A DNA stretch of 64,000 bases, taken from NCBI GenBank assembly GCA_963827475.1, contig CAWHAZ010000003.1:64001-128000 (forward strand). Reading direction: 5' to 3'. Every line of letters starts with the position of its first letter. Within the stretch, counting starts at the first letter, position 1. Below the pieces are notes generated by a model, which searched no databases, was not told the DNA's origin, and saw only the letters and a list, made by a program, of their open reading frames with translations. The DNA is from an uncultured Chloroflexia bacterium (GTDB lineage Bacteria > Chloroflexota > Limnocylindria > QHBO01). This document shows positions 26,741-52,441 of the stretch, one piece after another. A program made the position numbers and the translations under genes.

Positions 26741-27611
26741 TCACCACGGCTCGATGCTAGCCGGTTCGGCTCTCAGGTGAGTGCGGGTTGCCGCCAGCCC
26801 GGCCCGCTCGACGCGGCGCGCCACGCCGTCTGCCCGTTCCGGGTCGTCGGTCAGCACGAACACGGTCGGGCCCGATCCGGTCAGGTGAGGCGCTCCCCCC
26901 GCCGCGGCCACCAACCGGAAGATGTCGTCGAGCTCAGGCCTCAGGCGGGATGCGGCCGGGAGCAGGTCGTTGCGCCCCGGGGCAGTCTCGGGCGCTTCCT
27001 GCGCGGTCGACCAGTCCGCAGGCCGCAGCTCGGCGAAGACCGATGCGGTTGACAGCCCGAACGGTGCGTGGACCAGCACGACCTCCTCGCCCGCGGGGAC
27101 CTCCGCCCTGGGCTGCACGAACTCACCGACGCCGCCGATCCGGGCCGCGGCTGCCTGGGCCGCAAAGAACGGAATGTCGGCCCCGATCCCGGCAAGAAGG
27201 CTCAGGGCCTCCGGGTCGGGCGGATCATCTGCCGCGCCTTGCGTCCGCCGTGCCAGGCGCCAGGCCGCGGCCGCGTCCGACGAGCCGCCGCCGAGCCCGG
27301 CCGCGACCGGGATCTGCTTGTCCACGGAGAGGCTGCCGGCGCCGGTTTCGGTCGACCGCCTCCGTGCCCAGGCCCGAGATCCAGCCACGCCAGGCCAGGT
27401 TCGTGCGGTCCTCGGCAACGTCCGCGGCGTGCGGACCGCTGACCTCCAGCTCCGGGCCGTCCGGCCCCACGCGCACGACATCGGCCAGCTTGAGGAGCAC
27501 CAGCAGCGACTCGAGCTCGTGGAAGCCATCCGGCCGACGCCCGACCACGCGCAGCCACAGGTTCAGCTTCGCCGGGGCTGCGAGTCGCCACCGCCCTACG
27601 CGATCAGGCAC
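26741..27611 (-). CDS. ispE: 4-diphosphocytidyl-2-C-methyl-D-erythritol kinase (frameshifted)
   Basis: APAKLNLWLRV..RRPDGFHELES in one frame; KQIPVAAGLGGGSSDAAA, GADIPFF and LTGSGPTVF in another; shift near 27350. Confidence 0.9.
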
Positions 27612-28482
27612 CGTTTTGCTCCAGGAATGGCTTCAGGGTCGCTGCCAGGCACGCCCATTCGGCCACGGACAACGTCTGCGGCCGACGGTCGGGCGTCACC
27701 GCGCAGCCGGCCAGGGCCCCGCCCACCGTGTCCCGGTCGACCGGCAGCTCGCGGACGAGGCTGTTGTGGATCTGCTTTCGCCGCTGCCGGAATGCGGCCT
27801 GCACCACGCGATGGAACGTCTCGCGCTCCTCGGCCGGCACTACGGGCGACGGGCGAACCATCAGCCGCAGGATCGCGGAGTCGACCTCCGGCGCCGGTTC
27901 GAAGGCGCCGGCCGGGACGCGAGCCACGACCTCTGCCTCCGCAAGGTCCTGGACGAACACGGACAGGTAGCTCATGCCCCCCGGCGTCGAGGCAATGCGG
28001 TCTGCGACCTCCGCCTGGACGAGCAGCACCGCCCGCACCGGGGGGTGGTCGGCACCGAGGAACTGGTGCAGCAGCGGGCTGGTGATGTGGTACGGGATGT
28101 TCGCCACCAGGGCGTATGGCTCGCCCGGGAACAACGTGGCCGGATCGATGGACAGCGCGTCGGCGTGGAGCAGGGTCAGGTCGTCGGCGTCGTCGAGCTC
28201 GCGGCGCAGGTAGCCGATCAGGTGCGGGTCGACCTCGATCGCTGTCACCGCACAGCCGGCGGCCAGCAGCCGCCGGGTCAGGACGCCAAGCCCGGGGCCG
28301 ATCTCCACCACACGGTCGCCGGAGCGCAGGTCGGCGGCGGCCACGATCGTGTCCAGTGCCTCCGCATCGGTCAGGAAGTTCTGGCTGAGGCCGTGCCGCG
28401 GACGCAGCCCCTCCTCGCGCAGCAGCCGCCGCAGCTCCCCGGGAGTGGGCGGCCGCAGCGGGTCGTCGGCGCCTCCTCCCAT
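27604..28482 (-). CDS. rsmA: 16S rRNA m6,2A dimethyltransferase
   Basis: LSQNFL, VVEIGPGLGVLT, VANIPYHITSP, F.PAPEVDSA, AAFRQRRK. Confidence 0.95.
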   Translation of the reverse strand: MGGGADDPLRPPTPGELRRLLREEGLRPRHGLSQNFLTDAEALDTIVAAADLRSGDRVVEIGPGLGVLTRRLLAAGCAVTAIEVDPHLIGYLRRELDDADDLTLLHADALSIDPATLFPGEPYALVANIPYHITSPLLHQFLGADHPPVRAVLLVQAEVADRIASTPGGMSYLSVFVQDLAEAEVVARVPAGAFEPAPEVDSAILRLMVRPSPVVPAEERETFHRVVQAAFRQRRKQIHNSLVRELPVDRDTVGGALAGCAVTPDRRPQTLSVAEWACLAATLKPFLEQNGA

Positions 28483-29568
28483 CAGGCTCCGTCCTGCCAG
28501 GGCAGGGCGAGGGAGGGCACGGCCTCCAGCTCCGGGCCGGCTCGCGCTCCGGCGGCGAAGCGGTGGGCCGCCGCCGCGCCGATCATCGCCCCGTTGTCGG
28601 TGCACCAGGCGGGTGGCGGGACCAGCAGGGGCAGCCCGCCGAGACGGTCCGCCAGCGTGCGCCGCAGGGCGCGGTTGGCCGCCACCCCGCCGCCGAGGGC
28701 CACCGCGGCCACGTCGTGCTCGCCGGCGGCCGCCACCGTTCGGCGCACGAGCTGGTCGACCACCGCGCGCTCGAACGCGGCGGCGATGCCGTCGACCGGG
28801 ATCGGCTCGCCCCGTGATCGATATCCCTCCACCTCGCGCAGGACGGCGGTCTTCAGGCCGGAGAACGAGAAGTCGTAGCGACCTCGCGTCCGCGCCAGCG
28901 GAAAGCGCGTCGCGGGGGCAGCTCCCTCGGCGGCGGCCGAGATGGCCGGTCCCCCGGGATACGCCAGCCCGAGCAGGCGCCCGACCTTGTCGAACGCCTC
29001 TCCGGCCGCGTCATCCACCGTCTGACCGAGCAGTCGGTACTGGCCGTGATCGGCCATCAGCACCAGCTGGGTGTGGCCCCCGGACACGACCAGGCACAGC
29101 AGGGGAAAGGGCGGCTCCGGCGGCTCGGGCAGGGAGTGGCCGGCTTCGGTTCCCCCGCCATTCGGTCGTTCCGCCATCGGTCGTTCCGCCATCGGTCAGC
29201 CAATTGGCGTAGATGTGCCCCTCGATGTGGTTGACCGGGACCAGGGGGAGGTCGTGGCTGGCCGCCAGGCCCTTGCCCACGTTGACCCCCACCAGCAGCG
29301 AACCGATGAGCCCGGGCCCGTAGGTGACCGCAATGGCGTCGAGGTCGGTCCAGTCGACCTCGGCCTCGCGCAGGGCGGCCTCCAGGCTCGGCACGATCCA
29401 GCGCAGCTGCTGGCGGGCCGCGACCTCTGGAACGATGCCGCCCGTCGTCGCATGCAGCGCGACCTGGCTGGCGACGACGTTGGCCTCGATCCGGCGACCA
29501 CCGGTCACCACCGCCACGCCGGTCTCGTCGCAGCTGGTCTCGATGGCCAGGATGCGCGGGCCGCTCAC
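28482..29568 (-). CDS. tsaD: tRNA t6A transferase TsaD (single-base frameshift)
   Basis: ILAIETSCDET, GGIVPEVAAR, NHIEGH; then VSGGHT, DDAAGEAFDK, FSFSGLKTAV, CTDNGAMI; one extra base near 29161. Confidence 0.94.
29155..29197. repeat. 15-bp tandem repeat (about 2.7 copies) in the TsaD linker
   Basis: ccgcca(t)tcggtcgtt ccgccatcggtcgtt ccgccatcggtc, encoding TDGGT repeats. Confidence 0.85.
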
Positions 29569-30107
29569 CGGTCGGCGGCCTCCTCGTCCCGGGCGTCGTC
29601 GGCCGCCGCCGCGCGGGCCGCGGCCATCGACTCGCGCATGGCCCGGCTGTCGAGCGGCGGCGTGGTCATGATGTAGGCGTCCTCGCCGTCGTCGGTGTAG
29701 TAGCGCTCCCGGCGACCGGCAACGGCGAAGCCGTGGGCCGCGTACAGCGCCTGGGCAGCGAGGTTGGAGACGCGGACCTCGAGCGTCATCGTGGCCGCGC
29801 CGAGCTCCTCGGCCACGACCAGCAGGGCGAGCAGCAGCCGGCGTCCGACGCCCTGCCGTCGCCAGTCGGGGTGTACGGCAAAGGTGGTGATGTGGGCCTC
29901 GTCGACCATGAGCCACACCCCGGCGTACCCCACCACCGCCCCGCCCTGGCGGGCGACCGTGTAGCGGGCGAGGCGGTTGTGCCGGAGCTCCTGGTGGAAG
30001 GCCTCAGGCGGCCAGGGTGTCGTGAAGCTCGCCCGCTCGATCTCGAGGACGGCGGGTATGTCGTCCAGAACCATCGTCCCGATCCGGACCGCGGCGGTCA
30101 GAGCCAT
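29565..30107 (-). CDS. rimI: Ribosomal-protein-alanine N-acetyltransferase
   Basis: IERASFTTPW, EAHITTFAVHPDWRRQGVG, LEVRVSN..AQALY..GF...GRRERYY. Confidence 0.93.
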   Translation of the reverse strand: MALTAAVRIGTMVLDDIPAVLEIERASFTTPWPPEAFHQELRHNRLARYTVARQGGAVVGYAGVWLMVDEAHITTFAVHPDWRRQGVGRRLLLALLVVAEELGAATMTLEVRVSNLAAQALYAAHGFAVAGRRERYYTDDGEDAYIMTTPPLDSRAMRESMAAARAAAADDARDEEAADR

Positions 30108-30733
30108 GTCACCGGCACCTCGGCTCCCTCGACTACGCCCCGCGGCGGGCGCAGATAGACCGGCTCGAGGGCCGACAGGTCATCCGCCGTTCCCGCTGCG
30201 AACCGAGGCGCCGCGAGACGGGCGACGGCAACTGCTGCGCCGTCCGGCGGGATCGCGTGGCTGAGGCCGAGCGTGTCGGCCAGCTCCCGGGGGGCGACCA
30301 GGCGGGAGGCGCGGCCGTCGGCCGAGATGGCGTCGAACGCGACGAGGCGCGGATCTGGTTCGTCGCGCGAGCGAGCCCACCCCTCCGCAGCCCCGGCGCG
30401 GACCAGCGCAGCGACGGCCTCGGGCACGCTGTCCAACCACGCCTCCAGGCTGGGGATCCCGACGATCGGCACGGCGAGGCCCCATGCCAGGCCTTTGGCC
30501 AGGGCCAGACCGACGCGCAGCCCGGTGAACGAGCCGGGACCGAGGCCCACCGCCACGCCCTGGACGTCGGCCAGGGTCGCGCCCCGGTCGTCGAGCAGGC
30601 CGAGGATGCGGGGCAGCAGCTCGCTGCCCTGGCCCCGAGTCGTGCTCCAGGCCGCATCCGCGAGCGGGGCCCCGGTGAAATCCGCCAGGGCGACCGACTG
30701 GTCGGGCGAGGCGCTGTCGAGGGCGATGATCAC
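30098..30733 (-). CDS. tsaB: tRNA t6A biosynthesis protein TsaB
   Basis: IIALDSA, GPGSFTGLRVG, GIPSLEA, LEPVYLR. Confidence 0.93.
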   Translation of the reverse strand: MIIALDSASPDQSVALADFTGAPLADAAWSTTRGQGSELLPRILGLLDDRGATLADVQGVAVGLGPGSFTGLRVGLALAKGLAWGLAVPIVGIPSLEAWLDSVPEAVAALVRAGAAEGWARSRDEPDPRLVAFDAISADGRASRLVAPRELADTLGLSHAIPPDGAAVAVARLAAPRFAAGTADDLSALEPVYLRPPRGVVEGAEVPVTWL

Positions 30734-31233
30734 GCTGCTGTGCCGTCCTCGAGGGCGCGGGCCAACGCCACGTGCGGATCACCGACGGCCTGCCAGCGGA
30801 TCAGACGATGCTCCGGTTCATCGTCGACGAGCTCGAGCTCGATGCGCAGAACGTCGGCCGCCAGCCAGCCCTCGAGGCGATCGGCCCACTCGATGACGGT
30901 CACCCCCTCCGCCTGCCGTTCATCGAAGACGCCGGCCTGGCGGGCCTCATCGGCATCGGTCAGACGATAGGCGTCGACATGGAACAGGGGCAGGCGGCCG
31001 GCGTGCTCGTTGACGATGATGAAGGTCGGGCTGTTGACCACGCTCCGCACGCCGAGCCCCTCGGCCACGCCCTTCGCCAGCTGGGTCTTGCCCGCGCCGA
31101 GCGGTCCGACGAGCGCGAGCCGTGTCCCCGGCAGCGCGGCACGGCCGAGCCGTCGGCCGACCCGCCGGGTTGCCGCCGCCGAGCCGGACACCAGCTGGCC
31201 ACTTGTTGCGGTGTGGTTCACGCTCGCCGTCAC
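30730..31233 (-). CDS. tsaE: tRNA t6A biosynthesis ATPase TsaE
   Basis: GPLGAGKT, VNSPTF, HVDAYRL, VIEWAD; start GTG 31233. Confidence 0.93.
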   Translation of the reverse strand: MTASVNHTATSGQLVSGSAAATRRVGRRLGRAALPGTRLALVGPLGAGKTQLAKGVAEGLGVRSVVNSPTFIIVNEHAGRLPLFHVDAYRLTDADEARQAGVFDERQAEGVTVIEWADRLEGWLAADVLRIELELVDDEPEHRLIRWQAVGDPHVALARALEDGTAA

Positions 31234-31247
31234 GCGCCGCGAGTATC

Positions 31248-32282
31248 TCAGGACGGCTGCGGGCTGGCCTCCAGGTTGGCGAGGGCGATCGCCACCGTGC
31301 GCCCCGTATCGAGCCGCACCAGGCCGCACAAGGCGCTGATCCCGGATCCGATGGCCATCGGCTGGCTCGGAACCTCGCGCAACATGCCGACCTGGCCGCG
31401 GCCCGGGCCGGTGACGACGACCACGCGATCCCCGACCGCGGCTCGAGACACCCGCTCTGGAGCCGGCGCCGCGTCGTAGACGAGCAGGCGGCGCTGGTCG
31501 CCGAGGATCGTGACCGACCGATCGGCATGGGCCTGGAGCCAGGCGAAGCGGGCGGGGTCCATCCCGGATCGACCGAATCCGTCGAGCGCAAGCACCGCGA
31601 ACGGCGGGGCGGCGGTGCCGAGCAGGCTCCGTCGATGCTGGAGACCGGCGAAGTCCGCCAGGTCGCGGGCGTGGAGCCCGCCAACCACGATGCCGGCCAC
31701 GCCGACCGCGCGCGCCCGGGTGATGGCCTCGGCCGACGCCCACGATCCGCCGACGATGACCCGACCCGCGGCGTCCGCGTCGATCACGGCCGGATCGAGC
31801 GGGGTCTCGGGGTGGCTGACCGCCATCATCAGCTGGCCGTGCACCGCGGGCCCGGTACCGCCCGCGCATGCCAGCTCGACGGCGGGCACGGCGATCGTGA
31901 TCGCGTCCGGGCCGACCTCCATGACCACGCCACGGACGTTGCTCGCGATCGGTTGGGGGTCACCGAGGGTGAGCAGCTGGGCGTTTCCCCGCGTCGGGTC
32001 GTACGCCAGGAAGTAGCCATTGGCCGGGGAGCGGACCTCGCGCTCCGGCGTGCGTGCGAGGGGTTGATCGGCACGGACCCGCGTCCCGGGCGTCACCAGC
32101 AGGAGATCGACGACCTCCGGCTTTCGGCGGCGCAGGGGTCGCGCGATGGAAACCGACTGGCTGGCCGCCAGGCGGGCCACGGTCGCGACCGGATCCCCTG
32201 GTCGGACCTCGTCGCCGACATTGACCACCGGCTCGGCGCCGGACGGCAGACGGAGGCGGTGGCGGTACGGTCCGGGAGTCAT
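31248..32282 (-). CDS. Uncharacterised protein: barrel-sandwich-hybrid-like repeats, alpha/beta core, KOW-like C-terminus
   Basis: VVNVGDEVRPGDPVA and LVTPGTRVRADQPLA..EVRSPANG (BSH-like), GVAGIVVGG, LDGFG..M, VGDRVVVVTGPGRGQVG (KOW-like), terminal ANLE; ATG overlaps the upstream stop. Confidence 0.75.
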   Translation of the reverse strand: MTPGPYRHRLRLPSGAEPVVNVGDEVRPGDPVATVARLAASQSVSIARPLRRRKPEVVDLLLVTPGTRVRADQPLARTPEREVRSPANGYFLAYDPTRGNAQLLTLGDPQPIASNVRGVVMEVGPDAITIAVPAVELACAGGTGPAVHGQLMMAVSHPETPLDPAVIDADAAGRVIVGGSWASAEAITRARAVGVAGIVVGGLHARDLADFAGLQHRRSLLGTAAPPFAVLALDGFGRSGMDPARFAWLQAHADRSVTILGDQRRLLVYDAAPAPERVSRAAVGDRVVVVTGPGRGQVGMLREVPSQPMAIGSGISALCGLVRLDTGRTVAIALANLEASPQPS

Positions 32283-33935
32283 CCGGCGGCGCTGGCGCGC
32301 GGCTCGCGCCGGAGGGCTTCCCGCCAGGACTGGATCATCGTCCGGGCATCGCCGGGCCGCCCCGGGAGCTGGATCGGATCTCCACGCGCATCGAGGATGA
32401 TGCCCACCGCTCCTCCAGTGACGGCTGCCCGCAGGCGCGGGCCGCGGACGGGCGCTCCGACATGCACGCCGCGCTCGAGCTCGATCTCGAGGTCGCCCGA
32501 CCCCCCGCGCTCGAGGGGGAGGACGGCGATCGACCCGGCCCGAACGTCGACCGGCGGAATGTCCGGCCATCCGGGCCGGTGCAGCCGAGCACGAAACGCG
32601 AGCTGGCCGGGCTGGCCGCCCGCCGACCGGACGGAGGTGCCGAGCGGGACGAGCAGGTCATCGCGGAGCGTCTCCAGGCCCTCGTTGACGTCATCGTCGG
32701 CCAGCGCGCCGAGCGGCCCACAGATGCCCCACGGGTCGATCGCCAGTTGGGTGACACCGGGTGGTCGCAGCCCGTCGAGCAGGACGAGGGCGGCATCGGC
32801 AGGGTGCGGGGCTGCGGCGAGGAGCCGCCCGCCGCCCACGATCAAGTCCACGGCCGGACCGCCGCCCATCAGGTGGCGAGCGGCCGCGAGGCGGTCGACG
32901 CCAACCGCCTGCGCGATCGCGGACTCGACCGACGTGGCCGGAAGACCGGAACGGTGCATCTCGAGCCCCGCCATGGCATCGGTGGTGGTGAACTCGTCCG
33001 CGTCGGCCGGCAGGATCTCGGCCGCTGCCCGTGAGCCCGGCGGCAGGGTGCGCTCGGTGCGTGGCGGCCAGGATGGCCGTGCGGCCCGGAGAGCCGCTCT
33101 CGCGCCAGGCGAGCCACGACGCGCCGAGGTCGACCCCGAGGACCGTGATTCCCAGGCCCTCGGACAGCGCGTCCATGGCACGACCGAAGGCGACTGGCGT
33201 GGCGCTGCGCGCCTCGTTGATCTGGTTCAGCACGGTGAGCTCCCGCACCAGGGCGCCGGTCAGGCCCTCGTCAAGAGCCTCGGCGACGGACTCGGCGCGC
33301 GTCCCGAACAGCTGGACCAGCTCGCCCACCTCGTCCGGGCGGCCGACGACGAGGACGCGAGCGCGGGATGCCCCGAGCGCGGCGGCCACCAGTCCCCAGA
33401 GCGGCCCCGGGCCGAGGGCGGGTGACGGGACCGCCAGCCAGGTGTCGACGTCGGCCGCGCGCAGAAGCTCCAGTCGCTCGGCATCGGTCCGACGGTCGTC
33501 GCCGGCCACGCCGGCCTCGACGGTCCAGCCGCCGCGGATCGCCAGGGCCGTCGCCGCATCCAGCCTGGCCGTGGTGTCGGCCGCCACGGCCAGGCGCCCG
33601 GGTCGCCGCGGGGAGCGGCAGGTGATGCGCGGAGCTTCCCGCACCAGCAGCGGCAGCCGGCGATGCAGTCGAGAGTCGGCATGCGGGGTGAGCCGGCCGA
33701 CGAGGTCCTCGACCAGTACCGCGTCCCCCCAGGCCGTCGGCTGCGCGGCGCCTGACACGATCCGCCACCGGCCGCCCGCGCGCCCGACGAGGGCCGCCTT
33801 GGTCCACGCGCTGCCGACGTCGAGGAGCAGGGTGAGCTCCGTCTCGGGCGTGACCCGCACCGGAGTCGGGGCGGGCCTGGGCCTCGCCGCGGCGGCCGTG
33901 GGCGATGTCGAGGTTGCGTGGTCCACCGAGGTCAT
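32279..33935 (-). CDS. GlmL (glutamate mutase L)-like actin-fold ATPase (frameshift near 33060)
   Basis: Phosphate-1 LLLDVGSAWTKA, phosphate-2 VLGVDLGAS, adenosine-like DLIVGGG.LLAAAP, LLDGLRP.G, GIILDARG.P; coupled to the alr stop. Confidence 0.7.
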
Positions 33936-35062
33936 CGGTTCACGTGCCTCCTTGGGAGACGGCGGCGGAGCATGGTCGTCACTTCGTAGTTGATCGTGCC
34001 CCTCTGTGCCGCCACCTCGTCGGCGGTGATCTCGTCGTCGCCCTGGCGACCGATGAGCACGAACTCGTCGTCGAGGCCCACCGACCCCGCATCGCTCACG
34101 TCGACCACCAGACCGTCCATGCTGATCGCACCCACCATCGGCGCCCGCTGCCCGCGAACCAGGGCCGAGCCATTGTTCAAGTGGCTGCGGGGCCAGCCGT
34201 CACCGTACCCGATCGGCAGGGTGGCCAGTCGGCATGTACGCCGCGCGGTCCAGCGCATCCCATAGCCGATCGGCGTTCCCGACGCGACCTCGACCACCCG
34301 AAGCGGCAGCGCCCGCAGCGCCAACGCCGGGGTCAGGCCGGCGGTGGCGGGCTCGAACGGGTCGGGGCAGAGCCCGTACAGGCCCACGCCCGGTCGCACG
34401 GCGTCGGCATCGGTGCCCACGCCGGCCAGGATGGCGCCCGTTCCGCCGACGTGGACGATCCCTGGATCGATCCCGGAGGCGCGCATGGCGTCGAGGACGG
34501 AGGCCATGCGATCGAGCTGGGTCTCGGTATGGGACTCGTCCTCAGGCGCGGCGAGGTGGGTCATCGTGCCGGCCAGGTGCAGATGGCGGCTGGCCGCGAT
34601 CTGGCCGGCCAGCTCGAGCGCGGATTCGGGCTCGATCCCCTGTCGGCCCAGACCGCTGTCGACCTTGAGGTGAACGCCGAGCCGCGTCCTCGTGGCAGCG
34701 GCCGCGGTACCCAGGATCGCGACCGCGGCTGCACCATCGACGATCGGCTCGAGGTTCGCCCTCGCCACCGCCTCCGCGTCGCTCTGATCGAATCCGCCCC
34801 ATAAGACCAGGATCGGGCCGCCCAGTCCGGCGTCGCGCAGCTCGGTCGCCTCCGACACGGTGGCCACCGCGAGGCGTTCGACGTTCAGGTCGATCAGGGT
34901 GGCCGCCACCTCGACTGCTCCGTGCCCGTACGCGTTCGCCTTGACCACGCCGATGACCTGCGTGCCCTCTCCCGCCCGCTGGCGCAACAGGGCGAGGTTC
35001 GCCGCGATTGCGGCGTGGTCGATCTCGACCCAGGCCCGATGGCGATAGGCTTCCGGGTCCAT
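33932..35062 (-). CDS. alr: Alanine racemase
   Basis: VVKANAYGHG (PLP Lys), HLKVDSGLGRQG, VRPGVGLYG, PIGYGDG, VGAISMD, INYEV. Confidence 0.96.
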   Translation of the reverse strand: MDPEAYRHRAWVEIDHAAIAANLALLRQRAGEGTQVIGVVKANAYGHGAVEVAATLIDLNVERLAVATVSEATELRDAGLGGPILVLWGGFDQSDAEAVARANLEPIVDGAAAVAILGTAAAATRTRLGVHLKVDSGLGRQGIEPESALELAGQIAASRHLHLAGTMTHLAAPEDESHTETQLDRMASVLDAMRASGIDPGIVHVGGTGAILAGVGTDADAVRPGVGLYGLCPDPFEPATAGLTPALALRALPLRVVEVASGTPIGYGMRWTARRTCRLATLPIGYGDGWPRSHLNNGSALVRGQRAPMVGAISMDGLVVDVSDAGSVGLDDEFVLIGRQGDDEITADEVAAQRGTINYEVTTMLRRRLPRRHVNR

Positions 35063-35973
35063 CAGGCGCCGCTGGCGCCGCCACGAAGCACGGACATCGC
35101 CTCCGGGAGCAGGCCGGCAACGTCGGAGGCGAGGGCCCCGGCCACCCCGATCCGCTGCTCGGCGAGCAGGCCGGCCGCCGCGTGCACCGCCACCGCCACC
35201 CCGGCGGCGTCAACCGGCTCGAGACCGGCCGCGAGCATCGCCCCGATCGCGCCGGCCAGCACGTCGCCGCTGCCGGCGGTCGCCAGGGCCGGCGTCGCAA
35301 CGGCCGAACGGAGGATCCTGCCGTCAGGCGCAGCCACCACGGTGTTCGCGCCCTTCAGGATGACGACGTGCTCCCACAGCCGCGCGGCTTGCGCCGCGGC
35401 CGCTTCCCGGGCTGCGTCGTCTTCCTCGGGCGGGGGCGGCGCGCCGCCGCCGAGGAGACGGGCGAACTCACCCGGGTGCGGGCTCAGTACCGCGGTCGTG
35501 TTCAGCGTCCGCCACCAGCGGTCCCGTGCGGCGAGGGCGGTCAACCCGTCCGCATCGACGACCACCGGTCGTCGGAGCTCACTGATGAGGTGCGCCGTCC
35601 GACGGAGGGTGGCCGCGTGGCGGCCGAGTCCCGGCCCGACCACGATCGCGTCATAAGCGCCGGCAGCCGCCGTCAGCTGCCGCCAGCCGGCGGGCGCGAC
35701 GAGCCCCACGGCCTCCTCCGGCAGCAGGAGCGAGGTGAGCTCCGGCACGAGCCCCAGCAGCCGGAGGCCGACGGTCTCCGGCGTCGCCAGGCACACCAGC
35801 CCGGCCCCGCTCCGCGCGGCCCCGAGTCCGGTGAGCAGCGCCGCACCGGCGTACTCCAGCGAGCCGGCCACGACGAGGACCCGACCGAACGTGCCCTTGT
35901 GGCTGATCGGGGGCCGCGACGGGAGGTGATCGGCGACCCAGCGCGGGGTGAGCGTGGTGGCACCGCCGGGCAT
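35062..35973 (-). CDS. nnrD: ADP-dependent NAD(P)H-hydrate dehydratase
   Basis: HKGTFGRVLVVAGS, GPGLG, VVDADGL, SPHPGEFARL, LATAGSGDVLAG; no fused epimerase domain. Confidence 0.93.
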   Translation of the reverse strand: MPGGATTLTPRWVADHLPSRPPISHKGTFGRVLVVAGSLEYAGAALLTGLGAARSGAGLVCLATPETVGLRLLGLVPELTSLLLPEEAVGLVAPAGWRQLTAAAGAYDAIVVGPGLGRHAATLRRTAHLISELRRPVVVDADGLTALAARDRWWRTLNTTAVLSPHPGEFARLLGGGAPPPPEEDDAAREAAAAQAARLWEHVVILKGANTVVAAPDGRILRSAVATPALATAGSGDVLAGAIGAMLAAGLEPVDAAGVAVAVHAAAGLLAEQRIGVAGALASDVAGLLPEAMSVLRGGASGA

Positions 35974-35979
35974 TGGTGC

Positions 35980-36360
35980 TCAGGCCTCCGCGGGCCGATC
36001 GGCGATGGCGACCGCGACGGCCATCCGCCGTTCGTGAGAGATCGAGACGGTGACCTCACCGATGCCGAGGCGGGCCGCCCGGGCAGCGGCACGGCCATGG
36101 AGCAGGACCTGCGGCTGCCCGGCGAAGTTGGGCAGGACCTCGATCTCGCGCCAGCCGACGCCCCGCACGCCGAGGCCGAGCACCTTGCTGACCGCCTCCT
36201 TCGCCGCCCAGCGGCCGGCGACCCGCTCGATCTTGTCGCCGCAGTAGCGGTCCTCGCGCTCGGTGAGCACACGGCGCCGAAATCGCTCCGGATAGCGGGA
36301 GAGCGTCCGCGCGATCCGGTCGATGTCGATGAGATCGACGCCGAGCTCGTGGCGGCTCAT
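35980..36360 (-). CDS. acpS: Holo-ACP synthase
   Basis: GVDLIDIDRI, AGRWAAKEAVSK, VSISHE. Confidence 0.95.
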   Translation of the reverse strand: MSRHELGVDLIDIDRIARTLSRYPERFRRRVLTEREDRYCGDKIERVAGRWAAKEAVSKVLGLGVRGVGWREIEVLPNFAGQPQVLLHGRAAARAARLGIGEVTVSISHERRMAVAVAIADRPAEA

Positions 36361-36381
36361 CGGGCGTCGCCCACCCGGCAG

Positions 36382-38217
36382 CTACTCGACAGTGACCGAC
36401 TTGGCGAGGTTGCGAGGCTGGTCGACATCGGTCCCGCGCGATACGGCGACCTCGTAGGCGAGGAGCTGGAGCGGCACGATGCTGATCACCGGAGACAGCT
36501 CTTCCAGCGTCTCGGGGACGACGAGGACGTCCTCGGCGAGCTTCCCGATCTGCTCGTCGCCGGCCGTCGCCACCGCCAGCACCGGCGCCTGACGGGCCCG
36601 GGCCTCGGAGACGTTGGACAGGATCTTCTCGTAGACCGCGCCGCGGGTCACGATCGCCACGAGGGGGGTGTCGGCATCAAGGAGGGCGATCGGGCCGTGC
36701 TTCAGCTCGCCGGCGGCATACCCCTCGGCGTGCACGTAGGACAGCTCCTTGAGCTTCAGGGCGCCCTCCATCGCGATCGGGAAGCCCACCCCGCGACCGA
36801 TGTACATCACGTCCTGTACGTTCAGCGCCGCCCAGCGAGCCGCGATCTCGCGCACCTGCGGGGCACAGTCGAGGGCAGCCACCGCCGCCCGGGGAAGTGC
36901 CCGCAGGCCCAGGCCGTAGGTCGCCAGCTGGGCATGGGTCATCGTCCCGCGCAACCGGGCAACATGCAGGGCCAGCATCTGGAGGACGAGGACCTGGGTC
37001 GCGAAGGCCTTGGTGGAGGCGACCCCGATCTCAGGCCCGGCCTGGAGGTAGACGGTCGCGTCGCCGTCGCGGGCCAAGGCGCTGCCCACGACATTGGTCA
37101 CGACGACCACCGTCGCACCTCGCTCTCGCGCCAGGCGGGTGGGGGCGATGGTGTCCGCCGTCTCCCCCGACTGGCTGACGCTGACGACCACGGTCCGGTC
37201 GGTGATCGGCGGTGGCGCGTAGCGCATCTCGGAGCCGATGACCGAGACGGCCGGCACGCCGGCCCACTGCTGGAGGAGGTAGGCACCCACGTCGGAGGCG
37301 TAGTGCGCCGTACCGCAGGCGACCAGGTAGATGCGGTCCGCCTCCCGCAGCTTGTCCTCGACGGCGTCCAGCTCCGGCAGGTGGAGCACGCCCCGGCCAT
37401 CCACCCGCCCGCGAAGGGCCTCCTGGATCGCGTGCGGCTGCTCGTAGATCTCCTTCAGGGTGAAGTGCGAGAACCCACCCTTCTCCGCGGCCTCCAGGTT
37501 CCAGGTGATCTCGGTCACCTCGCGATCGAGCTCATCGCCCTCGAGGTCGATCACCGTCGTCCCCTCCGGTGTCACCGCAGCGATATCCCCCTCGTGGAGG
37601 ATCACCACCCGCCGGGTGTGCTCGAGGATGGCCGGCACGTCGCTCGCCAGGAACCCCTCGCCCTCGCCCAGCCCGACGATGAGCGGCACGTTCATCCGGG
37701 CCCCGACGATGAGGTCGGGGTGATCGGTGTGCATGACCCCGATGGCGTAGGCACCCTGGACCTGTCCGAGCGCCCGTCGCACTGCCTCGACCAGGTCGCC
37801 TTGGTAGGCCTCCTCGATCAGGTGGGCGAGGACCTCGGTGTCGGTCTCCGAGCTGAAGGCGTGGCCGGACGCGGCGAGACGGTCGCGGACCTCGGCGTAG
37901 TTTTCGATGATCCCGTTGTGGATCAGGGCCAGCTTGCCCGTGCAGTCGGCGTGGGGATGGGCGTTGAGGTCGGTCGGGGCGCCGTGCGTGGCCCACCGGG
38001 TATGGGCGATGCCGGGATGGCCGTGGGGCGTGGAGCCGTTGAGCTGATCGGTCAGGTTGTGGAGCTTGCCGGCCTTCTTTTCGACGAAGACGGTGCCGGC
38101 ATCCGTCCGGATCGCGATGCCCGCCGAGTCGTAGCCGCGGTACTCCAGTCGACGCAGGCCCTCGAGCAGGATGGGCGCCGCATCACGCGGTCCGACGTAG
38201 CCGACGATCCCACACAT
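36382..38217 (-). CDS. glmS: Glutamine--fructose-6-phosphate transaminase
   Basis: MCGIVGY, LEYRGYDSAG, HTRWATHG, SQSGETADT, PRNLAKSVTVE. Confidence 0.98.
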   Translation of the reverse strand: MCGIVGYVGPRDAAPILLEGLRRLEYRGYDSAGIAIRTDAGTVFVEKKAGKLHNLTDQLNGSTPHGHPGIAHTRWATHGAPTDLNAHPHADCTGKLALIHNGIIENYAEVRDRLAASGHAFSSETDTEVLAHLIEEAYQGDLVEAVRRALGQVQGAYAIGVMHTDHPDLIVGARMNVPLIVGLGEGEGFLASDVPAILEHTRRVVILHEGDIAAVTPEGTTVIDLEGDELDREVTEITWNLEAAEKGGFSHFTLKEIYEQPHAIQEALRGRVDGRGVLHLPELDAVEDKLREADRIYLVACGTAHYASDVGAYLLQQWAGVPAVSVIGSEMRYAPPPITDRTVVVSVSQSGETADTIAPTRLARERGATVVVVTNVVGSALARDGDATVYLQAGPEIGVASTKAFATQVLVLQMLALHVARLRGTMTHAQLATYGLGLRALPRAAVAALDCAPQVREIAARWAALNVQDVMYIGRGVGFPIAMEGALKLKELSYVHAEGYAAGELKHGPIALLDADTPLVAIVTRGAVYEKILSNVSEARARQAPVLAVATAGDEQIGKLAEDVLVVPETLEELSPVISIVPLQLLAYEVAVSRGTDVDQPRNLAKSVTVE

Positions 38218-38236
38218 GACGTGTTCTGGCGCTCGA

Positions 38237-39568
38237 CTAGTTCAAGCGCGCGGTGGCCAGGTCCGCGAGCTCCCGGGCAATGGTGGCGATCTCGTCTGGC
38301 TCCTCACCTTCGACCATGATCCGCAGCCGGGGCTCGGTGCCCGAGGCGCGGACGAGAATCCGTCCCCGGCTGCCAAGCCGGGCGGTCGCCCGTGCCACGG
38401 CGTCCGCAAAGAGCGGGTCGACCTGCCACTGATCCTTGTGGCGGACGGCCGAGTTTATCACCACCTGCGGAAGCCTCGGAATTCGGGCGGCCAGGGTCGA
38501 GAGGCTCGCCCCGGGCGCGGCCCGGAGGGCGGCGACCAGCTGGATGGCGGTCAGCAGCCCGTCTCCGGTGGCGGCCAGGTCGCGGAAGATCACGTGGCCT
38601 GACTGCTCGCCGCCGAGCATGGCGCCCGAGCGCTCCATGGCCTCCAGGATGTGGCGATCGCCCACCGGCGCCCGAATGACGCGGCCTCCGGCCGCCTCCA
38701 CGACCCGCACCAGCCCGTCGTTGCTCATGACCGATACCACCAGCGTCTGCTCGGCGAGCGTGCCCGCCTCGAGGCGTTCCAGGGCGCAGATCCCCATCAC
38801 TCCGTCGCCGTCGACCACCTCCCCCGCCTCGGTGACGGCGATGAGCCGATCCGCGTCGCCGTCGAACGCAAAGCCGAGGTCCAGCCCGTTGACGCGGACG
38901 AGGTCCGCGAGGGAGGCGGGGTCCGTCGCGCCGCCACCGACGTTGATGTTCGTCCCATCGGGATCGCAGTGGATGGTCGTGACATCCGCCCCCAGGCTCC
39001 GCAGCAGGTCCGGGCCGAAGGAGGAGAGCGAGCCGTTGGCCGCGTCGAGGCCCACCCGCAGCCCGGTGAGCTGGTCGCCGGCGATGGCGACGAGATGCTC
39101 CCGGTAGAGGGCGACCGCCTCGGGGTCGCGGCTGACGCGGCCGAGGCCCGCGTTGGTCGGACCGGGGAGTGCTTCGGCCTGGAAGATGAGGTGCTCGAGC
39201 TGCTCCTCGGCCTCGTCGTCCATCTTCCGGCCGCCCGACACCACCTTCAGCCCGTTGTCGTCGGGCGGGTTGTGCGAGGCGGAGACCATGACCCCCGCCA
39301 CGTGCTCGCCGGTCTCGGCCACGAACGCGAGGCACGGGGTCGGGACGACGCCGAGGTCGAGGACATCGGTCCCGACCGAGGTCAGCCCGGCGGTCAGTGC
39401 GGAGACGAGCATCTCTCCCGATCGCCGTGTGTCGCGGCCGACGACCACGCTCCGGCCGGCGCCTTCGACGTAGTGGCCCAGCGCGCGGCCGAGGTCGTAG
39501 GCAAGGGTCGGAGTCAGGTCGACATTGGCGACACCGCGGATGCCGTCGGTGCCGAACAGGCGGCCCAT
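38237..39568 (-). CDS. glmM: Phosphoglucosamine mutase
   Basis: FGTDGIRG, SASHNP, FDGDADR, GGEQSGH, RASGTEP. Confidence 0.96.
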   Translation of the reverse strand: MGRLFGTDGIRGVANVDLTPTLAYDLGRALGHYVEGAGRSVVVGRDTRRSGEMLVSALTAGLTSVGTDVLDLGVVPTPCLAFVAETGEHVAGVMVSASHNPPDDNGLKVVSGGRKMDDEAEEQLEHLIFQAEALPGPTNAGLGRVSRDPEAVALYREHLVAIAGDQLTGLRVGLDAANGSLSSFGPDLLRSLGADVTTIHCDPDGTNINVGGGATDPASLADLVRVNGLDLGFAFDGDADRLIAVTEAGEVVDGDGVMGICALERLEAGTLAEQTLVVSVMSNDGLVRVVEAAGGRVIRAPVGDRHILEAMERSGAMLGGEQSGHVIFRDLAATGDGLLTAIQLVAALRAAPGASLSTLAARIPRLPQVVINSAVRHKDQWQVDPLFADAVARATARLGSRGRILVRASGTEPRLRIMVEGEEPDEIATIARELADLATARLN

Positions 39569-39584
39569 CGTGCGCTCGGTCGGG

Positions 39585-40796
39585 TTACGGGCCGCCGGCG
39601 GTGAGCGTCACCGTCACCGGGGCGAGGGGTTGGACGAGGGTGATCCCGGCCGGAAGGTTCACGGTCGGTGTGACCTGGTGCGTGCCCTCGCCCAGCCCCG
39701 CCATGTTCAGGATCGGGGTGACCTGGGCCGGGGTGAGGGCCGCCACCGCGGACCTCGTCCCACTGACCGTGACCGGGATCTGGCCCGCGGCCGGCTCGCA
39801 GGTCAACCCGGCGCCCACGTTGGTGCAGACCGGTCCGGCGAGGATCGTGCGGCTCGCGAACTCCGGGGCGACGTCGACCGTCACCGAGGCCACCGGCTCC
39901 ACCCCGTCGGCGAGACGGGTCTGGTCCGGAATGGTGAGCGCGACCTCGATCACGGTGTCGGCGGTGACGGTCGCGAGGTTGATGGGCGCCGTGGAAACGC
40001 TCGCGATCGACGCAAGCACCGCCGGCGGGCCGAAGATCGTGACCGCGGCTGGTTCGGCACTGACCGCGGTCAGGGTCAGACCGACCGGCGGGCTGCCCTC
40101 GAGGTCGAGGGCGACCGGTACCGTCTTCGAGGTCTCGGCGGTGCTGACCTCGATGTCGACCGACGCCGCGTTGGGCGACAGCTCGACCGCCGGCACGGGC
40201 TCGCCGTCGACATTGACCGGGACGAGGTCGACCTGCTCGTGCACGTCGATCCCGGAGGGGTCGATCCGCACCCGGGCGAGGGCACGGGTCACGAGCCGCA
40301 GGCGGCTCTCCGGGCCCTGTGCCTGGACCGTGGACGGCATGACGTTCTGCGACGTGATCTCCAGCCCGGCCGGGATCTCGCCGCGGTCGACGACCACCTG
40401 CACCGTCCGCACCCCGAGCCGGTCGAGGATGACCGACACCTCGAGCGGGGCGTAGTCGAGCACCTCGACCTCCTCGTCCAGGGAGCGGACGTCGACGGGC
40501 AGGAGCTGCGGCTCGCCCGCCTGGGTCATGTCATAGACCTCGAGGTCGACGGATACGCTGAAGGTGGTGGCCGTTACCCCGCCGGCGGCCGCGGCTGATG
40601 CGCGGTATCCGATGTCGACCGTGCCAAGGTCGCCGGTGAGCAGATACGTGTTCAGCGGCTGGTTCACCGCCCGAATCGCCACCCCGGTAACCTGCTGCTC
40701 GGTGAACGAGCCGGAGTACACCAGGCCGGCGTAGAGCAGGACCGACAGGAGCAGGGCGCCCAGCTTCAGCGGCCAGTTGCGCAGCAGCCAGGCCAT
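39585..40796 (-). CDS. cdaR: CdaR/YbbR-like c-di-AMP regulator
   Basis: NWPLKLGALLLSVLLY TM helix followed by beta-rich YbbR repeats (P..V...GP); lies between cdaA and glmM. Confidence 0.85.
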   Translation of the reverse strand: MAWLLRNWPLKLGALLLSVLLYAGLVYSGSFTEQQVTGVAIRAVNQPLNTYLLTGDLGTVDIGYRASAAAAGGVTATTFSVSVDLEVYDMTQAGEPQLLPVDVRSLDEEVEVLDYAPLEVSVILDRLGVRTVQVVVDRGEIPAGLEITSQNVMPSTVQAQGPESRLRLVTRALARVRIDPSGIDVHEQVDLVPVNVDGEPVPAVELSPNAASVDIEVSTAETSKTVPVALDLEGSPPVGLTLTAVSAEPAAVTIFGPPAVLASIASVSTAPINLATVTADTVIEVALTIPDQTRLADGVEPVASVTVDVAPEFASRTILAGPVCTNVGAGLTCEPAAGQIPVTVSGTRSAVAALTPAQVTPILNMAGLGEGTHQVTPTVNLPAGITLVQPLAPVTVTLTAGGP

Positions 40797-41851
40797 CAGG
40801 CGCGGCGGTCTCCGCTGGCCACCGGCGCCGCGGGGTCGGACGGGTCCGGCGCAGGAGTGGCAGGTTTCTGCGCCTGGGCGGCGGTCTTCTTCGTCTGGGC
40901 GGCGGGCTTCTGCCCCGGAGAGGTCGCGTCAGCCGGCGGCGCGACGGAGGTGACCACCCGGTCGTCGGGGTCGATCGGCGCCTCGACCGGCTCGTCCTCG
41001 GGCATGCCCCATCGACCCTCCAGCGTGCGCCGCAGGAGCGGCGCTGCTTCGCGCGGGGCCTGGGGCCGGATGAGGCTGAAGATCCGGCGCCGAAGCCGGT
41101 CCTCGCTGAGGTTCCGCTCGATGCGCCCCCGGACGACGAGCGAGATGGAACCGGTTTCCTCGCTGACGACCACGATCAGGGCATCGGTCTGCTCGCTGAT
41201 GCCGATCGCCGCCCGGTGGCGGGTCCCGTACCGCTCGCTGTCGAGCACGTTCTGGCTGAGCGGGAGCAGGACGCCGGCAGCGACGATCCGGTTGCCGGAG
41301 ACGACCACCGCGCCATCGTGCAGCGCGGTGCCGTGGTAGAAGATCGTGGCCAGCAGCTCGGCATGGAGATCGGCGTTGATCGGCACGCCGGACTCGGCGG
41401 TCAGGTCATGGAGGCCGGTCTCGCGCTCGATCACGATCAGTGCCCCGTGGCGCGACCCGGCCAGCAGGCGCGCGGCTCGCGACACCTCGCGGGCCACGCT
41501 GTCGGCCGCGGAGACCTCGGACGACACGAACAGACGGTTCAGGGAGCCCATCCGGCCGATCTGCTCGAGTCCACGACGCAGCTCCGGCTGGAAGACGACG
41601 ACCACCGCGAACAGGCCGACCACCGCCCCGGCCTGGAGCAGGGTCGAGAGCAGGACGAGATCGAAGGCCTGGGCGGCGATGTAGACCAGGGCCACGATGG
41701 ACAGGCCGATCAGGATCCGGACCGCGCGCGTGCCCCGAATGAGCACGAACAGCCAGTAGATCAGGACGGCGACGACGATGATGTCGATGATCGAGGTCAG
41801 CGGCGTGCCGCGCAGGAAGGTGTCGAGGAAGTCGCTGATGCTCTCCGGCAC
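40796..41851 (-). CDS. cdaA: Diadenylate cyclase CdaA/DacA
   Basis: 3 TM helices, VFQPELRR.LEQIG, HDGAV, GTRHRAAIGISE, VVSEETG. Confidence 0.95.
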   Translation of the reverse strand: MPESISDFLDTFLRGTPLTSIIDIIVVAVLIYWLFVLIRGTRAVRILIGLSIVALVYIAAQAFDLVLLSTLLQAGAVVGLFAVVVVFQPELRRGLEQIGRMGSLNRLFVSSEVSAADSVAREVSRAARLLAGSRHGALIVIERETGLHDLTAESGVPINADLHAELLATIFYHGTALHDGAVVVSGNRIVAAGVLLPLSQNVLDSERYGTRHRAAIGISEQTDALIVVVSEETGSISLVVRGRIERNLSEDRLRRRIFSLIRPQAPREAAPLLRRTLEGRWGMPEDEPVEAPIDPDDRVVTSVAPPADATSPGQKPAAQTKKTAAQAQKPATPAPDPSDPAAPVASGDRRA

Positions 41852-50309: not shown

Positions 50310-50533
50310 TCGGACGTCCCCTCGCCACCGGGCTCGGTGACCTCGACCAGGAAGGCGACCCGGCGGAGCATGCCGCGGATCTGGGGCGTGTCCGCGACCA
50401 CCACGGTGTGATGCAGGCGGCGCAGGCCGAGCGCTCGGATCGTGCCGCGGGCGGCCGCCTTGTGACCGATCTCGGAGCGGACCCACTTCACCTTGATCGT
50501 GCGCGGGTTGGACGAGGTGCGCTTAGCGGCCAC
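50306..50533 (-). CDS. rpmD: 50S ribosomal protein L30
   Basis: [28 protein letters not shown]. Confidence 0.95.
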
Positions 50534-51113
50534 GCGGCGGGCCTCCGGGGAAGTTCATGGGCTCGGGCCGCTCGCGGTAGACGTGGGGCTGGCGGGCCGC
50601 TTCCGCGCCGCGCTTGCCGAGCAGCTGCTCGGCGGTCTTGCCGCGGCGGGCGGCCATGTCGTCGGCGGAGTGCAGGTTGGCGAGGCAGTCGAGCGTGGCC
50701 CGCACGACGTTGACCGGGTTCGTGCTGCCCATCGTCTTGGACAGCAGGTCGTGGATGCCGGCCACCTCGACCACGGCCCGCACGGAACCGCCGGCGATGA
50801 CGCCGGTGCCCGCCGATGCCGGGCGAAGGAGGACGCGCGAGGCGCCGAAGTCACGCTGGATGGTGTGCGGGATGGTGCTGCCCACCAGCGGGACGCGGAT
50901 GAGGTGCTTCTTGGCATCCTCCACGCCCTTGCGGATGGCCTCCGGGACCTCGCCCGCCTTGCCCAGCCCGGCGCCGACCACGCCGCGGCCGTCGCCGACG
51001 ACCACGATGGCGCTGAAGCTGAACCGCCGGCCGCCCTTGACGACCTTGGCGACCCGGTTGATCTGGACGACCTTCTCTTCGAGGCTGAGCTTGGTGGGAT
51101 CGATACGTGGCAT
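50523..51113 (-). CDS. rpsE: 30S ribosomal protein S5
   Basis: [36 protein letters not shown]. Confidence 0.97.
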
Positions 51114-51125
51114 GGGTTCTCCGCT

Positions 51126-51485
51126 CTACAGTTCGAGGCCGCCCTGGCGGGCGCCCTCGGCGAGCGAGCGAACCCGCCCGTGATACCGATATCCGCCGCG
51201 GTCGAGGACGACCTGGGTCACGCCGGCAGCGCGGGCCCGCTCGGCGAGCGCCTTGCCCACCGCCTCGGCGGCGGCCACCGTCCCACCGGAGCCGGTCAGG
51301 CTGGGCTCGCGGCTGGAGGCCGCGGCCAGGGTGCGGCCGGTGCTGTCGTCGATGACCTGGGCGTAGATGAATCGCGAGCTGCGGAACACGCTCAGCCGGG
51401 GCCGCTCGGGGCTTCCGGCCAGGCGGAGCCGGAGCCGGGCGTGACGCTTGCGGCGCAGCGCGTCGCGCGAGGTCTTCTTGATCAT
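51126..51485 (-). CDS. rplR: 50S ribosomal protein L18
   Basis: [28 protein letters not shown]. Confidence 0.97.
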
Positions 51486-52036
51486 CAGGCCGCGCCTCCG
51501 ACCTTGCCGGCCTTGCCGGCCTTGCGTCGGATCTGCTCCCCGGCGTACTTGATGCCCTTGCCCTTGTACGGCTCAGGCTTGCGCCGGGCGCGGATGGCGG
51601 CGGCCACCTGGCCGACCAGCTCGCGGTCGGGCCCGCTCACCGCCAGGCGGGTCGGGGTCTCGACGGTGAAGGTGATGCCCTCCGGCGGTTTGACCTCGAC
51701 CGGATGCGAGAAGCCGAGGGCCAGGACGAGCATGTCGCCCTGGAGCTGGGCGCGGTACCCGACGCCACTGATCTCGAGATTCTTGGTGAACCCGCTGGTC
51801 ACGCCGGTCACCATGTTGGCGACGAGCGACCGGGTCAGACCATGCAGGGCCCGGTGGCGCGGAGCGTCGGACGGGCGCTCGACGCGAAGCACGCCGTCCT
51901 CGTGGACGAGGGTCATCTCGGGGTGCACGTCACGCTCGAGGGTCCCGAGGGGGCCCGTGATGCTGACGTGCTGGCGGTCGAGGGAGACCTCGACGCCGTC
52001 CGGGATGGGGATGGGCAGACGCCCGATACGTGACAT
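51485..52036 (-). CDS. rplF: 50S ribosomal protein L6
   Basis: [28 protein letters not shown]. Confidence 0.98.
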
Positions 52037-52042
52037 CGGTCC

Positions 52043-52441
52043 CTACCAGACGTAGCAGATCACTTCGCCGCCCAGGTTCAGCTTCCGGGCCTGCTGCCCG
52101 GTCATGATCCCGTGGGAGGTGGAGAGGATGGCCACGCCCAGGCCGCCCAGGACGCGGGGAATCTCGGTCTTGCGCGCGTAGACCCGCAGGCCGGGCTTGC
52201 TGATCCGCTTCAGGCCGGTGACGACGGGGGTCTTGCCCTCGACGTACTTGAGGGTCAGCACGAGGTGGTCGTGTCCGTCCTCGACCCGGTTCTGGTACGA
52301 GCCGATGAAGCCTTCCTCGACCAGGATGCGGGCGATCTCGGTCTTCACCCGTGAGCCGGGGAGCACGACCTCGCTGTGCCGCGCCAGGCTCGCGTTCCGG
52401 ACCCGGGTCAGCATGTCGGCGATGGGATCGGTGACGTTCAT
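52043..52441 (-). CDS. rpsH: 30S ribosomal protein S8
   Basis: [35 protein letters not shown]; start ATG 52441. Confidence 0.97.

Follow-up and report, generated by a model that had tools for sequence, protein, structure and literature searches.

Two genes, here designated A and B, lie between alr (alanine racemase) and tsaE on the minus strand of a 64,000-nucleotide stretch of DNA (the window) from an uncultured soil Chloroflexia bacterium of the Limnocylindria (assembly GCA_963827475.1, contig CAWHAZ010000003.1, positions 64,001 to 128,000), and their products are read here, with modest confidence, as an ATP-driven module which began as the cytoplasmic portion of a small complex in the membrane. 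Gene A (32279..33935, taking both of its frames together) encodes a divergent nucleotide-binding protein of the MutL/GlmL family (Pfam PF13941) with an extra C-terminal beta domain, while gene B (31248..32282, 344 amino acids) would encode a four-domain adaptor made up of barrel-sandwich-like beta domains, a swivel-type alpha/beta domain and a KOW domain. The two proteins would be made together by means of an ATGA stop-start overlap and would act as one ATP-dependent unit; in the predicted complex B spreads all of its domains over both lobes of A, such that ATP-driven closure of the lobes may move B, or B may gate the ATPase activity of A. In most Limnocylindria the pair closes a six-gene cluster opened by four membrane-protein genes (designated X1-X4), and a membrane-complex origin is proposed because A and B follow these four genes. 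In the clade of the window just A and B appear to be left at the locus, joined by overlap to the alr reading frame, and the pair would there work without X1-X4 or with copies encoded elsewhere. No description of the A-B pair, the cluster or DUF6754 (the family of X1) and no paper naming PF13941 was found in the literature searched, which was mostly without subscription journals.

Pairing of genes A and B and their predicted complex

A first-pass annotation of the window had described the two genes as translationally coupled to alr and to each other, and both ATGA overlaps were read in the sequence: the stop codon of alr (33934-33932) overlaps the ATG of gene A (33935-33933), and the stop codon of gene A (32281-32279) overlaps the ATG of gene B (32282-32280). 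Related loci were collected by scanning one genome per species and keeping the best 80 of at least 290 relatives (out of at least 599 pattern matches), all 80 of which have Limnocylindria-type synteny. The conservation of the pair, which that annotation had put forward, was borne out in this set, as A was located directly upstream of B in 78 of the 80 loci and tsaE directly downstream of B in 78, the other two being cut at a contig end in each case. An overlap between the stop of A and the start of B was present in 71 of 78 loci, being 4 nt long in 68 of them and 1 nt long in the other 3, and the median projected gap between B and tsaE was 25 nt.

A complex of the two proteins was predicted with scores of 0.87, 0.88 and 0.87 in three runs, compared to 0.16 for the best of three controls, in agreement with the two-protein unit proposed earlier. 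Of 157 solved complexes, 116 reach the mark against which the score was read, as do 2 of 215 mismatched pairs; these rates hold roughly here as the alignments were our own. At least 95% of contacts agreed between the runs, with a partner pLDDT (predicted local distance difference test) of at least 88. The predicted contacts on A were found at residues 65-80 and 150-190 of lobe I and at residues 314-338 and 374-376 of lobe II; every domain of B touches A in the model, and the KOW domain does so through B residues 279-294, 306-318 and 332-336. Residues 38-41, 64-68, 90-104, 204-209 and 310-318 of B belong to the predicted interface. The prediction supports, rather than proves, binding of A and B to each other, and it offers a concrete biochemical test. 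No solved complex of this kind was identified by PDB sequence search with A and with the profile of A.

It was also observed that both genes have relatives at E values down to 1e-213 and carry the mark of purifying selection, with ratios of non-synonymous to synonymous substitution rates (dN/dS) against five relatives of 0.18-0.43 for the N-terminal half of A and 0.11-0.19 for its C-terminal half, and of 0.12-0.29 for B against its relatives. These values were similar to those of alr, tsaE and tsaB. On the relatives found and the overall dN/dS range of 0.11-0.43, A and B are judged to be more than chance open reading frames (ORFs).

Families and folds of proteins A and B

The first-pass annotation had proposed a search against the MutL/GlmL family. 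A was compared with the relevant Pfam and NCBIfam models. The intact database version of A (P0055) passed PF13941 (35.3 bits, E 7.8e-9, cutoff 27) but had no match at E<=1 to the NCBIfam GlmL models NF040745 (accessory_GlmL), TIGR01319 (glmL_fam) or NF040744 (ornithine Or-4). The two pieces of A in the window, taken alone, remained under the PF13941 cutoff of 27 because of a break in the reading frame (23.2 bits for the N-terminal frame and 14.0 bits for the other), and neither had an NCBIfam GlmL match. A 42% identical relative from the clade which carries X1-X4 (P0115) scored 115.2 bits against PF13941, and 49.6, 44.4 and 22.4 bits against NF040745, TIGR01319 and NF040744, for which the cutoffs are 475, 204 and 600 respectively. 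Judged by these profile scores, A falls within PF13941 but outside GlmL proper.

The phosphate-1 motif DVGSAWTK (residues 39-46) and the phosphate-2 motif DLGAS (residues 269-273), both picked out in the first-pass annotation, were found to lie in columns invariant across 28 relatives, and the adenosine motif of A is IVGGGR, in lobe II. D39, G41, T45, K46, D269, G271, G367 and G369 were invariant in 28/28 aligned relatives. An AlphaFold2 model of A (mean pLDDT 79.2, predicted template modelling score 0.81) contains a two-lobed actin-type core at approximately residues 32-427, a C-terminal beta domain at approximately 429-515 and a final helix. Foldseek returned 80 matches to the model in the PDB at E<=0.001; the 50 listed were actin-fold proteins (E 4.5e-8 to 6e-4), among them proteins of acetone carboxylase/hydantoinase A type, PilM, Ppx/GppA, sugar kinases and Hsp70. 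A PDB sequence search with A and with its profile gave 0 matches, and no PADLOC model of anti-phage defence matched A. The modelled structure has the ASKHA (actin/Hsp70/sugar kinase) fold, and ATP binding is a prediction only.

When A was set beside known systems, it was seen to have the Pfam family and actin-type fold in common with the GlmL/MutL accessory protein and the GlmL-related ornithine-degradation protein, and to have kept both the N-terminal DxGS..TK motif and the second DxG motif. It differs from them in falling far below the NCBIfam cutoffs or having no match at all, in being approximately 100 residues longer with a C-terminal beta domain, in having no mutase gene nearby and in being always paired with B, and mostly also with four membrane-protein genes. 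The best fold matches were to the ATPase subunits of the hydantoinase A, acetone carboxylase beta and N-methylhydantoinase group (E 4.5e-8 to 1.6e-6), although with template modelling (TM) scores of 0.23-0.32 and 11-12% identity, and A has no hydantoinase B-type partner.

Membership of PF13941 raises the alternative that A, with B, is a reactivating chaperone of GlmL/MutL type, working in trans for a B12-dependent mutase whose gene lies elsewhere in the genome, an alternative that we consider improbable. In its favour, besides the family itself, relatives from the X1-X4 clade are labelled 'glutamate mutase L' in NCBI records, as PF13941 proteins routinely are, and named members of the family are described as a chaperone for glutamate mutase reactivation in one paper (PMC4682846); another (PMC5597319) just lists glutamate mutase among actin-fold families. 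The surroundings of the pair point away from it. The first-pass annotation had noted that no B12 genes lie in the window, and no B12-binding or mutase domain was identified among 52 window ORFs with Pfam or among 11 + 7 operon ORFs with NCBIfam, in a list of ORFs which has small gaps (the largest, of approximately 2.2 kb, inside the ribosomal spc operon), and neither a cobalamin riboswitch nor a glmS ribozyme was detected when the whole window was searched with Rfam at gathering score. The same was seen at the related loci, where housekeeping genes and X1-X4 accounted for the sequence in 79 of 80, leaving no unaccounted stretch of more than 900 nt, and the remaining locus (L024) has one of 1038 nt. 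The constant neighbours of the pair are membrane proteins and tsaE, with no enzyme among them, and the failure of P0055 to match the NCBIfam GlmL models, together with the 49.6 bits of P0115 against a cutoff of 475, argues in the same direction. By context, A-B is not the reactivase of a neighbouring B12 mutase. The name 'glutamate mutase L' is likely to be misleading for the subfamily of A, because there is no mutase nearby, B is a fixed partner and most relatives have membrane partners.

With respect to B, no family of Pfam, NCBIfam or PADLOC reached its cutoff (PADLOC gave one marginal ZorF match, E 0.0051 over 29 residues), while a 99% identical protein (P0001) and 53 further relatives were found. 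The outline given in the first-pass annotation (barrel-sandwich-like repeats, an alpha/beta core and a KOW-like end with ANLE) proved essentially right when compared with the AlphaFold2 model (mean pLDDT 87.7) and with fold and profile searches. The model has beta strands at residues 6-153, an alpha/beta domain at approximately 175-270, which would be of swivel type, and a small KOW/SH3-like beta barrel at approximately 280-340; the conserved ANLE lies at the C-terminus of the protein.

All fold matches of B were partial, with low global TM-scores. The best was to Thermotoga maritima NusG (2xhc; E 2.3e-5), over its inserted beta domain and KOW domain; the others were to the hybrid-domain region of RNA polymerase beta-prime (E 6e-4, low TM), the swivel domains of RraA and UPF0107, LdcA (E 7.4e-3, falling on the swivel domain) and the KOW domains of Spt5 and ribosomal proteins (E 4e-3 to 1e-2). 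The likeness to NusG/Spt5 extends to sequence, as the B-family profile matches KOW, but B has no NGN domain, the overall TM-score is 0.15, and NusG has no counterpart of the swivel-type alpha/beta domain. A profile of 31 distant members of the B family matched the KOW domains of Spt5 (1.8e-8), NusG (1.5e-4) and uL24 (1.5e-4), and aligned with the family of B itself over 313 columns (E 1.6e-52). Single sequences gave fainter signals: Pfam KOW (PF00467) was below cutoff on B and close relatives (E 0.12-0.38; 0.23 for B itself), as were Biotin_lipoyl, RnfC_N and RPOC_hybrid on B and P0001 (E 0.037-0.16), while one relative (P0034) reached RPOC_hybrid (27.8 bits, cutoff 27) and another (P0317) matched RnfC_N (E 1.6e-7). 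Among 1.84 billion representatives, the family of B numbered 2159 clusters when the threshold was set at E<=0.001, falling to 1270 with E<=1e-10 and to 184 with E<=1e-30, making B a member of a sizeable family for which there is no Pfam model.

A PEP-utilising phosphohistidine domain was considered for the centre of B and rejected. Alignment by hhalign with the pyruvate phosphate dikinase of the window gave a probability of 0.1 (E 0.5), there is no invariant histidine in this region, and just the general swivel fold is common to the two. Diol dehydratase reactivase, DdrA, is a B12-enzyme reactivase in which an Hsp70-like ATPase is joined to a swivel-fold domain. A and B together would have a comparable layout, and the 50 fold matches listed for A and for B do not include DdrA.

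The KOW domain, which is backed by the profile search, and the close spacing of B and tsaE also bear on a second alternative, namely that A-B serves tRNA N6-threonylcarbamoyladenosine (t6A) synthesis or translation together with TsaE, TsaB and TsaD, with the KOW domain binding either RNA or a partner on the ribosome or the polymerase. The actin fold is also that of TsaB and TsaD, and a scan of positions 28000-40000 for promoters and terminator-like sites gave 0 of either kind. Certain database ORFs (P0245, P0268, P0314 and P0276) run from a B-family stretch into TsaE, and one of them also contains a TsaB/TsaD-family stretch, running on into TsaB. We nevertheless consider such a role unlikely. 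All of the loci are from one class in which the order from glmM to tsaD is frozen, and the adjacency may be historical; the order alr-tsaE-tsaB-rimI-tsaD presumably occurs without A-B in mycobacteria. The long B-TsaE ORFs, one of which spans three genes, resemble gene calls that read through on contigs prone to errors, or else may be rare fusions. KOW/SH3-like barrels also make protein contacts, the KOW domain of B touches A in the predicted complex, and neither TsaD nor Kae1 was among the 50 listed fold matches of A.

Membrane-protein genes at the related loci

The window belongs to a clade of nine loci (L001-L009) in which B is 66-88% identical and the layout is window-like, with alr next to A; in the other 71 loci (L010-L080) B is 40-47% identical and extra genes are found between alr and A. 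In all 51 of the latter loci whose sequence reaches 3.3 kb or more upstream of A, X1-X4 were collinear, on the same strand and directly upstream of A, compared to 0 of the 9 window-clade loci. This membrane-gene context is new relative to the first-pass annotation. X1 is a DUF6754 (PF20539) protein (52.8 bits, cutoff 27) whose two ends each carry a hydrophobic segment. X2 and X4 are small and polytopic, and X3, bitopic at both ends like X1, has a hydrophobic segment at either end with a soluble domain of approximately 220 amino acids between them. No NCBIfam model matched X1-X4 and no Pfam model matched 14 members of X3. When profiles were compared with PDB sequences, X1 gave only a chance match (E 0.89) and the match of X3 to PilN was not significant (E 0.11); WD40 matches of the X3 profile were discarded, as no stretch passed and they look like repeat bias. 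When the window and L001-L009 were translated in six frames and searched with profile hidden Markov models of X1-X4, there was no match at E<=10, while a held-out control locus was recovered at 1e-80 to 1e-118.

A parallel to such an arrangement would be PilM-PilN, in which an actin-fold ATP-binding protein is docked to bitopic membrane proteins. The model of A matches PilM structures (E 6e-7 to 5e-6, with low TM-scores of 0.21-0.34) and the relatives encode A together with bitopic membrane proteins, but the PilN match of X3 is the non-significant one given above, there are no pilus genes and PilM has no B-like partner. The likeness is offered as an analogy of layout only.

Several points weigh against reading A-B as an ATP-driven module of membrane-complex origin. 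The complex score is the model's own confidence, obtained from custom alignments, and the global TM-scores of the fold matches of A and B are low (0.11-0.34). The 80 loci are from one class, so the gene order that they share does not count as independent evidence. Neither the 64-kb window nor any of the nine 21-kb loci of its clade contains X1-X4, and the membrane link is drawn from other genomes. In a quick tree of B the window's clade came out as monophyletic with a support of 99, its long stem measuring 1.09 changes per site, but the tree is a three-way split between this clade and two X1-X4 clades whose order it leaves unsettled; monophyly of the X1-X4 clades had a support of just 76, and loss and later gain of X1-X4 are both compatible with it. 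Finally, A of the window's clade has lost a glycine-rich stretch which borders the predicted B interface (VPSPAL in place of the GGFDGG which follows DAWL in the X1-X4 clade) and also has no short SGGL-containing insert, and because of these losses its nucleotide cycle may differ.

The first-pass annotation had looked to the envelope or to RNA metabolism for the function of the pair; both suggestions depend on gene order within a single class, and neither role was established. The envelope suggestion, that A-B regulates or assists the supply of peptidoglycan precursors (through alr, glmS, glmM and glmU), appears very unlikely. It draws on the ATGA overlap of alr and A in the window, on the adjacency of alr and A in 8 of the 9 window-clade loci (the ninth, L002, has a larger gap between the matches) and on the presence of glmM, glmS and glmU in the same gene string. 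The coupling to alr was, however, peculiar to the window's clade. In the 51 other loci a median distance of 3730 nt separates alr from A, and between them lie X1-X4 and, in 33 of the 51, also a macro-domain gene (for example the interval 4541-8328 of L025), and the coupling is therefore taken to be secondary, arising from deletion or rearrangement. In addition, A and B have no domain with a likeness to peptidoglycan enzymes; the LdcA match (E 7.4e-3) is that of the swivel domain.

A bolder version of the membrane-module reading would make A-B the soluble ATPase module of an undescribed six-protein membrane machine, with X1-X4 as its membrane proteins, A as a MutL-like actin-fold ATPase and B as a barrel-sandwich/swivel/KOW clamp, spread in Chloroflexota and perhaps in Planctomycetota, Myxococcota and Bacillota; this is put forward tentatively and is doubtful as it stands. 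A profile search with the B family returned 13 proteins, one distant relative being named as from Anaerolineae, and language-model look-alikes of B and X3 were found in clusters of Planctomycetota, Myxococcota and Bacillota, which are leads only. A tblastn search of 72,556 plasmids with a distant B relative and a relative of A gave no match. The recurrence of the pair in several anaerobic lineages, as put forward in the first-pass annotation, was thus not shown: the 80 loci are of Limnocylindria type, and beyond them stand the single Anaerolineae relative of B and the language-model leads. Were the six-protein machine real, the MutL/GlmL family would not be primarily a family of B12 reactivases, and the window's clade would represent the module acting alone after loss of its membrane parts. 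Lineages with and without X1-X4 form a natural contrast for the role of the module. No long-standing question is resolved here, and all that is known of the organisms comes from metagenomes.

Six of the related contigs (L027, L042, L049, L051, L056 and L058) are titled Steroidobacteraceae, Binatia or Methylomirabilota, yet have the Limnocylindria gene order, and their B proteins are nearly identical to those of Chloroflexota metagenome-assembled genomes (e.g. L049 compared with L056). These contigs are probably mis-binned or mislabelled.

Gene order, frame breaks and other features of the window

A frameshift near 33060 had been suspected in gene A, and comparison with P0055 placed it at 33059..33060 (minus strand) as one extra base, either the c at 33059 or the g at 33060, removal of either one giving the same protein. 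The N-terminal frame (33060..33935, residues 1-292; lobe I and the start of lobe II) ends at T292, whose codon is 33062-33060, and the C-terminal frame (32279..33058, residues 293-551; the remainder of lobe II, the C-terminal beta domain and the final helix) picks up at 33058 and runs to 32279. Gene A of the window carries one base more than would encode P0055, a protein of 551 amino acids which is identical to the product of the window over 292/292 N-terminal residues and again from TERTLPPGS through the last residue. A DNA alignment made with MAFFT had a one-base gap at the site in 3/3 relatives. Gene A was in a single frame without a stop in 71 of 72 related loci, and a programmed frameshift was rejected on this count; the sole locus with A split across frames (L068) is outside the window's clade.

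Two further genes of the window are broken in a similar manner. The two frames of tsaD (28482-29916, minus strand) part near 29161, within 2.8 copies of a 15-nt tandem repeat (29155-29197) which codes for a TTDGG-type linker; the third repeat unit has GAATGG where units one and two have GATGG, and tsaD was intact in 68 of 69 related loci. ispE (26741-27611, minus strand) is split near 27355 into pieces matching positions 3-69 and 88-269 of TIGR00154, and both pieces share one frame in locus L001. With three genes broken in the space of 7 kb, the assembly would seem liable to insertion/deletion errors. The break in gene A most likely stems from an error in sequencing or assembly and not from biology, because the intact P0055 is identical on both sides of it and tsaD and ispE are also split. 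The concern raised in the first-pass annotation, that the frameshift genuinely disrupts the gene, is accordingly unlikely to be justified.

This evidence also bears on the alternative that A-B in the lineage of the window is a decaying remnant, with X1-X4 lost and A a true pseudogene, to which we attach very little weight. The frameshift, the absence of X1-X4 at the locus, the loss of glycine-rich motifs from A of this clade and a somewhat raised between-clade divergence (ratios of 1.26-1.44 for A and B compared to 1.01-1.25 for neighbouring genes) would all fit such decay. Against this, both halves of A as well as B have dN/dS of 0.11-0.43, the only split copy of A among the 72 related loci lies in another clade, P0055 is intact and identical on both sides of the break, and two essential genes within 7 kb, tsaD and ispE, have single-frame breaks of this same kind, pointing to assembly error.

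The genes around A-B are housekeeping genes, with names assigned by NCBIfam or Pfam. The minus-strand string begins with cdaA, a ybbR-like gene, glmM, glmS, acpS, an NAD(P)HX dehydratase gene, alr (33932..35062; TIGR00492, 308.5 bits, cutoff 168), A and B, and continues after B with tsaE (30730..31233; TIGR00150, 89.4 bits, cutoff 60.1), tsaB, rimI, tsaD, rsmA, ispE, a ridA-like gene and glmU. A GTG which can serve as the start codon of tsaE is found at approximately 31233, approximately 14 nt past the stop of gene B at 31248. The window has a G+C content of approximately 68-75%. The consecutive cdaA (diadenylate cyclase), YbbR-domain and glmM genes (38237-41851, minus strand) form a row which we take to be the arrangement known from Firmicutes for the control of cyclic di-AMP.

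Elsewhere in the window, a 520-amino acid ORF at 50493-52055 (plus strand) has high third-position G+C and no Pfam match, and is probably an antisense artefact, because ribosomal genes of the spc operon are expected there on the opposite strand; the gene list missed genes in this interval, and further frame breaks may hide there. The sole Rfam match of the window at gathering score was a single tRNA gene at 6581-6652 (minus strand). Close to it, at 4194-6551 (plus strand), lies a gene for a protein of 785 amino acids in which a UvrA DNA-binding domain accompanies two ABC ATPase regions and which looks like a UvrA paralogue.

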